Of a stretch of DNA of 64,000 nt, positions 49,291 through 57,116 are shown one piece after another. The notes under the pieces are model-generated. The model ran no database searches. It had not been told where the DNA came from and was given only the letters and a program-made list of their open reading frames with translations. Both the position numbers and the translations under genes were made by a program. Where the stretch lies: NCBI GenBank assembly GCA_964016885.1, contig OZ024742.1, positions 290,098,001 to 290,162,000 on the forward strand. Reading direction: 5' to 3'. Position 1 is the stretch's first letter. Each line of letters starts with the position of its first letter. This stretch comes from Eledone cirrhosa. Its lineage: Eukaryota.

Positions 49291-49357
<67 letters not shown>

Positions 49358-49360
<3 letters not shown>

Positions 49361-50200
49361 TGCATCTTCGCTTATCCGAAATTCGATTTACCGGACGGCT
49401 ATTTCTCTTCATTGGAAAAGCGAAGCGGCCAAGATGTTTTGCAGGAATCATCATGGAGAACTTGTCGGTCACCTATCGGAATACGAAGAATGCTTGGGTA
49501 ACTCTAGAAATTTTCGGCGAATGGTTTCACAAAGTTTTCATTCCGTTTGTCCGTTCTGCTTTTGTTAAGATGGGGATGAAGACAAAAGCGATTCTTGTTT
49601 TGGACAATTGTGCAGCGCATCCGGATGAGAAGGACTTGATTTCGGCAGACGGACAGATTCGGGCAGCATTTCTTCCGGCGAACGTTACGTCACTTATTCA
49701 GCCAATGGACCAAGGAGTTTTGGAGACACTAAAGCGGATTTACAGAAAACAATTGCTGCGGGATTTGATCGGAAAAGGGGACACGGTAATGATTCCATTT
49801 TTACGTGCGATAAACATGAGGGAGGTGGTTGACCGTTCAGCTGTTGTGTGGGACTCGATAACTGAGGAAACTTTGAATCTATCGTGGAAAAAATTGATGT
49901 CGGATGAGAACAAGAACAATGCGGAAGGAAACGAGGACAATTACGAAATTTTAATTACGGACAAAGCGCTTTTAACAGGTTTGACAGAAATTGCTGGTGA
50001 GAGTTCGGCGGAAGATTTGATCGAATGCTTTGAGAATGACGGGTTAGGGTATGAACATTTCGATGACGTCGGAATTGTTGAACACGTAAGTCGAAAGGGG
50101 GATGACGAAGAAGAAGAGGAAGTTTTAGTCGAAAAAGTTGTCGAGAAACGCCCCGTGACGCATATCATTATATAGACCAATTTTTAACATATTTGAGGTA
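49358..50200 (+). mobile_element. Tigger/pogo transposon, internally deleted (TIR joined to DDE domain)
   Basis: TA|CAGTG..CGCTTATCCGA terminus; IGKAKRPRCF, NAWVT, LVLDNCAAH, FLPANVTSLIQPMDQGV. Confidence 0.9.
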
Positions 50201-52225: not shown

Positions 52226-52314
52226 TATTATGTTGACAAACTACCAAAACACACATTTATTTGTATATGCGCTACAATTTATGTACATGTTATGTAGAGA
52301 GAGATAGATATATA

Positions 52315-55300
52315 TGTGGGTATGGTGTGGTATACGGTGGCCGGAAGTGGAGGAGTGCTTGGCCGGAAGGGTGCTCGACCGGAAGGGCCAGCAGATCGGC
52401 CTCTCTCTAGTGGTGACCAGCAACGGTGTGGACGCGAGTTTTGACAGCTCCCGGTGTTAATGAGTTGGACGCACGTGGAAGAGGAGAAACCAGCAGGGGT
52501 ATTTAGCGGCGCCTATAAAAAGTGGTAAGTGAGATAGCTTTTTCTAACCACAAGCTATTTCGGCACTGGAAACTGAGATCTGATTGAAAAAAAAAAAAAA
52601 AAAAAAAAAGCTACTGGAAAAACAGAGAGGAGTCTGTTGTTTTTTTTTATCACGTACCGCAAGGCAAATTAGGATATGGCGACGAGACTACGAACAAGCG
52701 AAGCGATCAGGGCATTTACCGGTGAAGGTGATGTTGTTGCTTGGCTGCGAAAAGTCCGGCTGGTCGCAAGCTTACAGAAGATAGAAGATGTGGCTGGCCT
52801 CATGTCACTGTACCTCGAGGGGGACGCGTTGGTACTCTTCCTTGAGTTGGATGAACACAGCCAAAGAGAGGCGCATGATGGAAGCGTTCGCAGAGGGATC
52901 GTTAGCCGCTTTCGTTAAGCTGGCAAGAATTAGATGGAACGGTGAACGCGTTGACATTTTCGCAGCGGAAATACGGTGATTGGCCATGTTGGCTGGATAT
53001 CAGGTGGAATGCGAACGCACGATGCGGTTGGCGTTCATAAATGGATTTCCAGACGATATAGCGGTGAAAGTCCCGGGTTACAAAGAAATGGAAATGTGTT
53101 CACTGGTGGAACAAGCCCGGATCATAGCAGAAGATGCCAAGAAGAGTGTCGCGGCGATAGCAACTACAGAAGCTCAAGACAGCTGGCAGCAAAATAGTGA
53201 AAGGAAGGCAACCACGGTACGCGGTCGCCCGCGTACGTTTAGAGGTCGCTGTTTTAGGTGCCAGGGCCCGCACATGGCTAGAGACTGTAGAGAGTCAAGG
53301 CCAGAAATAATATGCTACCGGTGTAAGCGCCCAACCACATCGCTACTAACTGCGACCAGGGAAACGATCCAAGGGGAACTACTGCGCCGGTAGTTGCCCC
53401 TTACGAGTAGAGGCGCTGCCCGTGGTGGAAGTTTTCGTGAGGGACAAGCCACAGCGAGCCCTCATGGACACGGGCTGTACGACGACACTGGTGACCGCGG
53501 GGGTGGTGCAGAGGTGGAAAGGTAAGGGCAGTCGATGGCAGGAAAATTGAATGTTAGAGCGCAGCGAGGTGGAGATGGCGGTACGGAGAAGGAAAATAAG
53601 GCTTTCTGCCATCGTAGTAGACAGCGTGGTTATGGGCATGGACGCAATTGACCGTCTAGGAGGCGTCACAGTGAACAACGTCGGTGTGTCGTTTGGCGCC
53701 GCTGCATCGGTATGCGCTGTGAGTACGCAACAGGAGAACCAGAAGGCCCACGAGGAGAAATACCCCGCTTACACTGTGCAGGACAAAGACTTCAAGGCCG
53801 TGTTCGATGGGCAGCGATGGGTTGTTGAGTGGTACTGGAAGGGAGAACCACCAACACTGAAGACCAAAGTGGGCTGCTATCAACACACATTGAAGGGAAA
53901 CATTAGGAGCGAGTTCGAGCGAGAGGTAGAGAGATGGATTGAGGACGGCATACTGCTTCCCTGGAAGGAGGAGGTGAAGTGCGGAGTATTGCCGTTAATG
54001 GCGGTGGCGCAACCCACGAAGAACAAGGTGAGGCTGGTGCTGGACTTTCGGGAGCTGAATGAGCACGTGTCATGCCACACGGGTGGCGAGGTCACGGATG
54101 TCTGTGGGGAAACCCTGCGTGAGTGGAGACGCATGACGGGGTGTTCAGCAATCGTAGATCTAAAGTTGGCATACTTGCAATTGCATACAGATGAGAAGCT
54201 CTGGCAGTATCAGCTGGTCAGCTATAAGGGCCGGATATATTGCCTGACCAGGCTCGGTTTCGGGCTGAGCTCCGCACCGAAGATCATGGCGGCGGTCCTC
54301 AAGACCATTCTGGGAAAGGCCGACAAGATGAAGAGGGCCACTAACTCCTACATTGACGACATCCTAGTGGACGAGTCTGTGGTGTCGGCGGCGGAGGTCA
54401 CGAGCCATTTACAGGGGTATGGACTGGCTGCGAAGCCGTCAGAAGCGTTGGAGGGAGGAGCTGCGCTGGGACTTAGGCTACGGCGAGACAGGACGGCGTC
54501 TTGGTATTCCAGAGGGGAAATGAAGTTCCAGAACTGGGTCCAAGTATGAGTAGGCAGGAGCTTTTCTTGGTGTGTGGAAAGTTGGTGGGTTACTAGCCGA
54601 TCGCTGGGTGGCTCCGGACGGCATGCAGCTATGTCAAGAGACGAGCGGGAGGAGTGACAGAGTGGGAGATAGGACGGTGCCCATGATGCAGGAGATCGTA
54701 GGGAGGGTAAAGGCCGACGACCCAGTGCGGGGACGCTGGTACGTTCCCAAATCGCAGAGCGGGACCGTATGGTGCGATGCCAGCAGCATAGCGCTGGGTG
54801 TCATGTTGGAGATAGGAGGTGTTGAGGTCGAGGATGCAGCCTGGCTTAGGAAGAAGGACGACTGTAACCACATCAATGTGACCGAACTTGACGCAGTGTT
54901 GAGAGGGGTGAACCTCGCCCTGAGGTGGGGACTGCGCACCATCGAGATACGCACCGATTCGGCTACTGTACTCGGATGGGTGAGATCAGTGCTCACCAGT
55001 GAGAAGAGAGTGCGAACGAGAGGGGCGGCGGAGATGCTGATAAAGCGCTGCCTGAGAGCTGGCCACCGAGTTCGACCTGAGGCTGAGCGTAGTTTTCGTG
55101 CCCTCAGAGAAAAATAGGGCGGACGTCTTAACTAGGGTGAAGAAAGCCTGGATTGAAGCGCCGGAGGAGATAGAAGATGAGATAGCTGCCGTGTGTCGGC
55201 TGACCGAGTCAGATCTGAAAGGGTTGCATGACATGCACCACATGGGAGTGGATAGGAGCCTGTTCCTAGCCAGGAGAATTGACTCGGACGTTAACAGACA

Positions 55301-56390
55301 CAGTGTTCAAATGGTGGTTAGAGGCTGCGTCCGATGTCAGTCCATTGATCCCGCCCCGGGTGTGCACGAAACGGGAAGCCTCCCGGTGTATCGCGACTGG
55401 AAGCGATTGGCGGTGTATGTAACGCACTACCAACAGGGAACGTACCTCTCGATGGTCGACTGTGGACCAGGACGGATGGCGATATGGAGGGAGATGAAGA
55501 CTGGAACGGCCGAGGAAATCATGCGGATGTTGAGAGAGGTGTTCTTGGAGCGGGGCCCTGTGAACGAACTGCTGATGGAAAACAGCGCAGCGTTCCGCTC
55601 AGAGGCGCTGAGGGAGATGCTCGATGGATGGAAGGTGGACCGTTTCTTCAGAGCAGCGCACAGGCCGAGCGGGAATGGAATTGTGGAGCGACACCACCGG
55701 ACGATCAAGGCAATGGCGGAGCGGGGCCATATCTCACCAATGGAGGCAGTGTTCTGGTACAACATGTCCCCTCGGGTGGGACAGGTCGAGGAATCAGTGC
55801 CACACAGAGCAGTATTCAGATACGAGTGGCGGCTCCCGTGCACGCCACCACAACGGCCAGTGGGGAGAGAGAGTGCATTCGTGCAGGTGGGCAAAGATGT
55901 CTGGGTTAAGCCCCCAGGTGCACGTTGCACATCTCAATGGGGAAGGGGAACGGTGACGGCCGTAAATTTCCAGAACAATGTGTCCGTGGACGGAGTACCA
56001 TGTCATGTCCTGGATGTCCGTAGAATCACTGTGTCAACGGACTCCGAGGAAGAGGAAACCCAAAGTGCCGCCCCAACACTGCGGAGATCGCATAGAAGTC
56101 GTAAACCACCAACCTGGACAGCAGATTTTCATATGCAGAAGGATGAGGGGGGAAATTGATCCTTGAGATCGGGAGGGGGGTATGGTGTGGCGTGCGGTGG
56201 CCGGAAGGGTGCTCGACCGGAAGGGCCAGCAGATCGGCCTCTCTCTAGTGGTGACCAGCAACGGTGTGGACGCGAGTTTTGGCAGCCCCCGGTGTTAATG
56301 AGTTGGACGCACGTGGAAGAGGAGAAACCAGCAGTGGGATTTAGCGGCGCCTATGAAAAGCGGTAAGTGAGATAGCTTTTTCTAACCACA
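52315..56390 (+). mobile_element. Compact LTR retrotransposon (gag-PR-RT-RH-IN), frameshifted
   Basis: LTRs 52315-52552 (TGTGG..CCACA) and ~56178-56390; purine tract before the 3' LTR; CCHC knuckles, LMDTG, YIDD, CDAS, HH..CC and DDE-like integrase; ATATA on both flanks. Confidence 0.93.
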
Positions 56391-57116
56391 ATATATATAT
56401 AGAGAGGGGGAGAGTTTGGGGTTTATTGATACAGAGGGGGGTATTGGAAGAGAGTTCTGTGTAGTAGATATAGAGAGGGAGAGAGTTTGGTGTTAATTGA
56501 TATAGAGGGGGGGGGGGATTGGGAGAGTATGTTGTATGGTTGATGTAGATATACAGTGGGGGAGAGTTTGGCGTTAATTGATATAGAGAAAAATAGACCA
56601 CCAAATTCGCTCGCCCTCTCTATATTGCACTAAATATTTCACTCTCTTTCAATCCTTTAATTCCCCCTCTCTCATTAGGGCAACAAATTATCTCCCGCTC
56701 TCTATATCCCACTACATACCTCACACTCTCTCACCCCCCCCCCCTGTCACTAGACCACCAAATTCTCTCCTCCTCTCTATATTCTACTACATTCTGCAGT
56801 CTCTTTCACTCTCATTAGACCACAAATTCTCTTTACCTCTCTATATCCTACTACAATATTTTTTACTTTGAAACAACAAATGTTTTCATCTTCTGTAAAG
56901 AACGATAAGGTTCTCCATTCCCTCTCCCACCTTTTGAACTCCGGGGTGTGGGGGAGATCTTATTTTTTAGTGGTGTGCTTTTGTTGAATTATTTGACAGG
57001 AGTTTAAATATGTGGTGGTGGAGGGTGGTGGTAGTAGTGTGGTGGTGGTGGTGGTGTAGAGGGTGATGGTGGTGGTAGTATGGTGTTGTTGGTGGTGATT
57101 GTTTATTTTGGATATA

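Follow-up and report, generated by a model that had tools for sequence, protein, structure and literature searches.

A window of 64,000 nucleotides (nt) from Eledone cirrhosa (assembly GCA_964016885.1, contig OZ024742.1, positions 290,098,001 to 290,162,000 of the forward strand) contains, at positions 52315–56390 of the window, a compact and decayed long terminal repeat (LTR) retrotransposon of 4,076 bp. The features of the element are given on the forward strand. The 5′ LTR (52315–52552, 238 bp) starts with TGT and ends with CCACA, corresponding to TG..CA termini. The 3′ LTR (56178–56390) lacks the first three bases and differs from the 5′ LTR by a 22-nt indel; the two LTRs are 96% identical over 199 nt. 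The element is flanked by target-site duplications (TSDs) on the left (ATATA, 52310–52314) and on the right (56391–56395), the length of which is ambiguous in this copy because ATATA is located within a TA microsatellite. The internal region consists of gag followed by pol, which encodes protease (PR), reverse transcriptase (RT), RNase H (RH), and integrase (IN) in this order. Both gag and pol are interrupted by stop codons and frame changes. The gag remnant (52676–53381) encodes CCHC zinc knuckles and contains one frame change and one stop codon. A slippery heptamer in the gag/pol overlap (53359–53365) is predicted, from its sequence and the overlap of the frames, to direct a −1 frameshift. 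The first portion of pol (53359–54668) encodes the protease, the RT palm with a YIDD motif, and the thumb, which corresponds to the DUF7047 region, and is likewise interrupted by stops and frame changes. The end of the thumb and a single RNase H, devoid of a tether, follow (54557–55054). The last domain is an integrase harboring HHCC and DDE motifs and an SH3-like tail (55059–56051), with an active-site motif that is degenerate in the window copy. Motifs of the RT, the RNase H, and the DDE integrase were all found in the window. With no spacer, the 5′ LTR is followed by a putative primer-binding site (PBS), referred to below as the box (52553–52564), which is complementary to the 5′ end of a host tRNA.

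An earlier sequence-only reading of the locus had noted the absence of TGG after the 5′ LTR and proposed that the element had no tRNA PBS. The boundary sequence bears out the first statement, since it contains no TGG that could pair with a tRNA's CCA end. The second was not upheld. Bases 52553–52564 are the exact reverse complement (12 of 12) of nt 1–12 of host tRNA-Phe(GAA), ending precisely at nt 1, and nt 13 of the tRNA would mismatch the last A of the LTR. The probability of a 12/12 match by chance is about 6 × 10–6 against 100 tRNA 5′ ends and about 4 × 10–4 against any tRNA 12-mer. The host genome contains 234 matches to the tRNA-Phe 5′ pattern, and ARAGORN called Phe at all five host loci scanned. 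Among the 38 distinct genes for other host tRNAs, representing a few isotypes only, the best match to the box was 6 nt; the Rfam tRNA search of the host genome returned 16 loci only, and the host tRNA background is incomplete to that extent. The duplex with the tRNA has a predicted energy of −20.7 kcal/mol versus −12.6 kcal/mol for the fold of the leader. A TGG located 14 nt downstream was considered as a displaced PBS for a tRNA 3′ end and rejected, as it is not conserved among relatives. The earlier reading had named a tRNA-complementary PBS as an argument against its own proposal; such a site is present, but it is complementary to the 5′ end of the tRNA rather than to its 3′ end.

Two additional observations were made on tRNA genes. 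Genes for tRNA-Phe and tRNA-Asn are carried by a tandem array (G000:C4:117.36-117.56 Mb, L034–L040), the unit of which measures about 1.26 kb; in one tRNA-Phe variant of the array, an acceptor-stem change is compensated. A second group of loci (L144, L146–L154) contains numerous tRNA-like genes that are almost identical to one another but differ in anticodon, and is likely to be a tRNA-derived short interspersed nuclear element.

The end of the LTR joined to the box gave 282 exact matches in the E. cirrhosa genome with A as the next base and 126 with another base, indicating that subfamilies diverge at the first position after the box. Among the genome copies searched, no match was obtained for a spacer between the LTR and the box or for over-copied tRNA-derived bases at LTR-box junctions. 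The length of the TSDs, which the sequence-only reading had left to be measured across copies, was determined in a sample of 20 copies, three of which were unresolved. An exact duplication of 5 bp was present in 14 of the 17 resolved copies, one copy had 3 bp, and two had none. Divergence between paired LTRs ranged from 1.4 to 4.7% in the 10 copies measured. One sister family (L259, L263–L269, L272–L277, L281, L284) shares its LTR ends and tRNA-Phe box with the window element, and is likely non-autonomous, no protein match being found within 1.5 kb past the PBS. Locus L260 is an internally deleted copy, in which the end of the PBS is joined directly to the RT region via a short microhomology.

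A profile search for distant relatives returned 71 metagenomic loci, the best segments of which were 27–57% identical to the query. Of the 71 loci, 43 contain the box after ..CA, with 45 sites in total, and no site was found on the reverse strand. Because this count relies on a pattern built from the box itself, two freer tests were run. In a motif-free test, the LTR end plus the start of the box was the most widely shared 8-mer (46 loci) and 9-mer (43 loci). Starting from a 7-letter anchor, the box was completed at 36 of 49 sense anchors versus 1 of 20 antisense anchors. Three loci (L091, L103, and L109) combine a box with a complete pair of LTRs, and in each of them the box directly adjoins the LTR end as defined by the repeat. 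Conservation falls at position 13; position 13 onward is unconserved, as is U5 upstream of position −4.

Variation within the box is almost confined to the bases opposite tRNA nt 4–6. By site, the variants were GAA (13), TAG (15), GCG (9), GGG (4), and GTG (2), plus two sites with a further change, and their distribution on the RT tree (60 rows, quick tree) requires at least 8 changes. The box variants were compared to eukaryote-type tRNA-Phe genes located on stray contigs (75 + 5 loci, 8 variants besides GAA); 47 archaeal-genome loci and 4 viral loci that were not Phe had been dropped. The 5′ ends of tRNA-Phe(GAA) genes equal three of the four non-host box variants (GCG, GTG, and TAG; p = 0.005). 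The acceptor stems of the corresponding tRNAs contain wobbles or mismatches, and the box tracks the 5′ strand in all three. The possibility that the box is a sense copy of the tRNA 3′ strand was therefore rejected.

The sequence-only reading had noted a hairpin at the LTR boundary and had proposed a possible self-priming lineage. The hairpin does exist: the U5 arm (52531–52540) pairs with positions 52552–52561 over 10 bp, including one G-U pair, and is able to cover the PBS. Folding of the hairpin gave a z-score of −1.57 at best, 16 of 200 shuffled sequences folding as well. The stem is present in most copies of the family of the window element and in one sister family, and is shorter in a third. 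The putatively non-autonomous sister family described above retains the stem despite an altered arm, via G-U pairs; this retention, like the presence of the stem in most copies of the family, speaks for self-priming. Six other loci of the genome retain the box but not the arm. Across the 35 relatives that extend 100 nt or more upstream of the box, the longest pairing of the box with the preceding 300 nt had a mean length of 6.9, versus 7.3 in shuffled sequences, and duplex energies were alike. In addition, self-priming cannot account for box variants that track tRNA-Phe and would leave just about 22 nt for R and U5, and a TATA-like motif near position 52513 suggests that transcription may start past the hairpin arm. 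Self-priming was rejected as a mechanism of the lineage, since pairing in the 35 relatives did not exceed that of shuffled sequences and the stem is found only in the close clade of the element. Because of this confinement, self-priming via the U5-PBS hairpin is considered highly improbable. We favor reading the hairpin as a local modulator, which would act as a clade-specific gate on primer binding, rather than as the primer. A splice-donor-like motif is located in U5 just 5′ of the hairpin arm (52523–52531), and is retained by three sister families in the genome.

Complementarity to the 5′ end of tRNA-Phe, location of the box without a gap, conservation in the lineage, and variation mirroring the acceptor stems of tRNA-Phe were established at the level of sequence comparison. 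These features make it very likely that a 5′-terminal fragment of tRNA-Phe acts as the primer. We also consider it probable, with less assurance, that the element primes minus-strand DNA synthesis from a fragment of about 12 nt freed by its own RNase H. In a primer paired through nt 1–12, nt 12 forms the 3′ end and faces U5, as required for reverse transcription. In the proposed mechanism, tRNA-Phe, whole or nicked, would be opened and pair via nt 1–12 with the help of the Gag zinc knuckles. The RNase H would likely cut after annealing, following nt 12 (or 11), as in Tf1 but in trans. The resulting 3′-OH would face the last base of U5, enabling extension into U5. Plus-strand synthesis would then copy the primer to its 5′ end and renew the box, which would explain both why the match stops sharply at tRNA nt 1 and why the box tracks the host tRNA. 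The predicted RNase H is closest to an archaeal-type RNase H1 from Halobacterium (4e19; Z 16.7, root-mean-square deviation [rmsd] 2.1, 122 aligned residues). The RNase H of Tf1 cuts an RNA-RNA duplex after nt 11 (PMC7175516), and cleavage of double-stranded RNA is known for one archaeal RNase HI (PMC9719913).

Several points weigh against this interpretation. The argument for priming is drawn from sequence comparison, and the resemblance of the modeled RNase H to the archaeal type concerns its fold rather than its activity. The box is missing from 28 of the 71 loci, most of which end short of the leader, and five loci (L117, L125, L127, L133, and L138) reach the leader yet lack the box. Several relatives being near-copies, the number of independent cases is lower than 39. 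The GGG variant has no tRNA-Phe match in the stray-contig set, and the tRNA-Phe genes that do match originate from stray contigs of other eukaryotes, not from the host of each element. Candidate signs that a host tRNA-Phe isodecoder had been copied were obtained in two copies, versus none for the control, among about 282, numbers that are too few to decide. Finally, cleavage could be the work of a host nuclease. According to this alternative, host nucleases would generate the 5′ piece of tRNA-Phe by shortening a D-loop fragment to 12 nt, and its capture would be the sole contribution of the element. Cleavage near the D-loop is an established source of short 5′ tRNA fragments, and this origin of the primer accounts for all the sequence evidence equally well. 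However, natural short 5′ tRNA fragments are usually longer than 12 nt, and ragged fragments might leave extra tRNA-derived bases at LTR-box junctions, for which no match was obtained. Capture of a host-made fragment is considered unlikely.

The tRNA could also be involved in its intact form, docking by its 5′ strand as an anchor for packaging, dimerization, or a bipartite PBS, with synthesis starting from another 3′-OH. Bipartite tRNA contacts are known for Ty3, and co-folding predicted that pairing through nt 1–12 would free the 3′ strand of the tRNA. However, there is no conserved TGG or other partner for CCA near the LTR end, positions 13–24 are unconserved, and the box adjoins the LTR exactly at the site required for the 3′ end of a primer. 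Such an anchoring role without priming appears very unlikely in comparison to priming by the 5′-terminal tRNA-Phe fragment.

Homologues of the encoded proteins were found in Petrolisthes, Oratosquilla, Argonauta, Aplysia, Trichuris, and Nymphon, with Sycon as a sister subclade. Among named RTs, that of Argonauta is the closest (68% identity). The lineage comprises 1,323 clusters at 50% identity (E ≤ 1e-30), a number that is an upper bound because fragments are included; no relatives were found in the viral contigs searched. DUF7047 was detected in all 19 relatives scanned. In an AlphaFold model based on 81 sequences (mean predicted local distance difference test score of 81.5), DUF7047 forms the RT thumb, the helices of which (residues 323–380) lead straight to a single RNase H starting at residue 395. 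The model led us to reject the assignment of DUF7047 as a tether. The sequence-only reading had described the RT as short and atypical. The shortness is only partly borne out: the window copy is cut by stops and frameshifts, and the RT-RNase H of an unbroken relative aligned end-to-end with the RT of cauliflower mosaic virus (Z 20.9, rmsd 4.8, 413 aligned residues) and with that of Ty3 (Z 20.0, rmsd 4.5, 357 aligned residues), in a tie with the murine leukemia virus RT. For the integrase, structural comparison gave Z-scores of 15–18.5 with retroviral integrases versus 12.2 with that of Ty3.

The sister subclade (P0339, P0342, P0345, P0349, P0354, P0356, and P0362, with named members from Sycon ciliatum) has the same PR-RT-RH arrangement. 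Its integrase is longer, forms its own branch, and scores no better than Gypsy integrases on the profile of the main clade, suggesting from these sequence comparisons an integrase swap. Long proteins matching only PR-RT-RH were considered as tyrosine-recombinase elements, a candidate that was rejected as they carry a different DDE integrase. Locus L141 is a far more divergent element, with an RNase H detected by the lineage profile and followed by an integrase, and possibly represents a deeper relative. In Nymphon striatum, a protein annotated as GCN2 kinase (P0422) contains the full lineage pol fused in, probably as a gene-model artefact.

The element shares with Ty3/Gypsy (Metaviridae) the TG..CA LTRs, TSDs of the 4–6-bp class (5 bp here), and the PR-RT-RH-IN order. 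These Gypsy-like features raise the possibility that the element belongs to an ordinary Gypsy clade already present in Repbase or GyDB with its PBS noted, which would concern novelty and would be compatible with the proposed mechanism. Such elements may sit among the MolGy clades, the available text of the MolGy paper being silent on PBSs (PMC6238403). In contrast, Gypsy-type RTs scored at most 31 bits on the RT profile of the lineage, versus 152–165 bits for its own sister subclade, and the RNase H profile of the lineage detected no Gypsy RNase H. The Pfam profiles RT_RNaseH and RT_RNaseH_2 gave no match above cut-off in the window pieces or in 19 relatives, indicating an RNase H that is not of the Gypsy type. 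In a separate RT tree, a long branch with an approximate likelihood ratio (SH-aLRT) support of 100 divided 19 lineage RTs and 14 Gypsy-type RTs, in a small sample devoid of an outgroup. Neither a PBS for a tRNA 5′ end nor DUF7047 was found described for such elements in the literature searched. An ordinary Gypsy clade already documented in this way is considered unlikely, and the proposal of the sequence-only reading that the element lies outside the canonical Gypsy clades agrees with the profile scores and the tree as far as the 14 sampled RTs are concerned. The lineage cannot be placed further because the tree contains no DIRS, BEL, Copia, or retroviral rows; neither the E. cirrhosa genome nor searches for long proteins yielded BEL or DIRS outgroups. 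Together, these results indicate that the lineage is outside the 14 sampled Gypsy RTs, widespread among invertebrates, and apparently unclassified.

Assignment to the Troyka group, as the sequence-only reading had suggested, was abandoned. The window lineage resembles Troyka and the Kuafuorterviruses in that these are compact LTR elements of aquatic animals with PR-RT-RH-IN, no tether, and no env, located outside classical Gypsy (PMC12440569, PMC11673190). Troyka elements are defined by LTR termini of the CG..CG type, TSDs of 3 bp, and a knuckle of the form CX2CX8-10HX4C (PMC12440569), and Kuafuorterviruses an (I/V/L)ADD RT motif (PMC11673190). In contrast, LTR termini are TG..CA in the window, in its copies, and in relatives, and TSDs are 5 bp in length. 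The Gag knuckle is CX2CX3HX4C in the window, and CX2CX3HX4C plus CX2CX4HX4C in P0030. The RT motif is YIDD in the window and YVDD in the sister subclade. All four characters fail.

The RT motifs resemble the DIRS1/PAT rows of a published supplement, a likeness based on comparison by eye only, and the RNase H is presumably DIRS-like as well. Motifs of the RNase H and of the DDE integrase, the combination pointed out in the sequence-only reading, are both present. DIRS elements have a tyrosine recombinase, with repeats that are inverted or split, and neither a DDE integrase nor TSDs; the window element, in contrast, has a DDE (rve/HHCC) integrase, a protease, direct LTRs, and 5-bp TSDs. Similarity to Odin, lokiretroviruses, and retroviruses, as described in PMC9040795, is limited to the best solved integrase matches, which are retroviral, and to an RNase H of the cellular type; the lineage differs by the absence of a tether between RT and RNase H in the predicted model, a single RNase H, and the absence of env.

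With respect to priming, the closest parallels are Tf1 and the sushi chromoviruses, for which the literature describes a primer of 11–12 nt originating from the 5′ end of an RNA, located at the LTR boundary, and freed by cleavage of an RNA-RNA duplex (PMC7175516, PMC6317226), as would be the case here. The partner would differ, being host tRNA-Phe in trans instead of the element's own 5′ end; moreover, the relatives have no LTR complement or chromodomain, and their RT is unrelated. Half-tRNA primers of copia, Ty5, Osser, Bianca, and fungal Helenus are 3′-truncated tRNAs generated by cleavage in the anticodon arm, with pairing in that arm, and have been reported from Copia lineages only (PMC6317226, PMC10886601). 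The primer proposed here would also be a 3′-truncated tRNA, but pairing would involve nt 1–12, extending from the 5′ strand of the acceptor stem to the D-stem, and IN is located after RH rather than ahead of RT as in Copia elements.

Other features were detected in and around the element. The leader contains a poly(A) tract (52587–52609), which is also present in sister families. A remnant of the polypurine tract (PPT) is found at positions 56171–56177, directly preceded on its 5′ side by a short palindrome (56158–56170). The palindrome recurs in the distant relatives L075, L084, L096, L099, L102, L105, L106, and L123, seemingly in compensatory form in L084 and L088/L089, and may be a signal for PPT cleavage. 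Upstream from the element, a frame of 293 amino acids (49294–50175) resembles a DDE_1 transposase, which we take to be of a Tigger/pogo-like family.

According to the literature consulted, LTR elements are primed by the 3′ end of a tRNA, by a tRNA that has been cleaved in its anticodon arm, or by a self-primer (PMC6317226, PMC10886601). No description of a PBS for a tRNA 5′ end, or of the lineage, was found in the literature searched, which was exclusive of Repbase, GyDB, the Troyka Figshare data, bioRxiv supplements, and most subscription journals. The supplements of PMC11673190, PMC6238403, and PMC11889832, as far as readable, likewise lacked the RT motif of the lineage; the check included a positive control, and four picture-only files were outside its scope. 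A PBS of this kind explains why finders confined to tRNA 3′ ends call elements of this type PBS-less. If correct, our proposal would make a 12-nt 5′-terminal tRNA fragment a fourth type of primer, midway between Tf1 self-priming and tRNA priming. A primer of this type bears on the origin of tRNA priming from hairpin priming, which is presented as an open question in PMC3601003. The model predicts the existence of a specific tRNA-Phe fragment and of an RNA-RNA cutting activity, and DUF7047 would gain a role as an RT thumb, as judged from the predicted structure. More tentatively, and with doubts outweighing our confidence, we envision an unnamed superfamily-level lineage, extending from sponges to cephalopods, crustaceans, and nematodes, which would be characterized by this fourth mode of priming and would combine a DIRS-like RT and RNase H with a DDE integrase swapped at least once. 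Its RNase H would carve the first 12 nt off host tRNA-Phe, so that the PBS would be rewritten at each round, providing adaptation to the host after horizontal transfer. The box would also provide a diagnostic motif for this large and poorly classified lineage.

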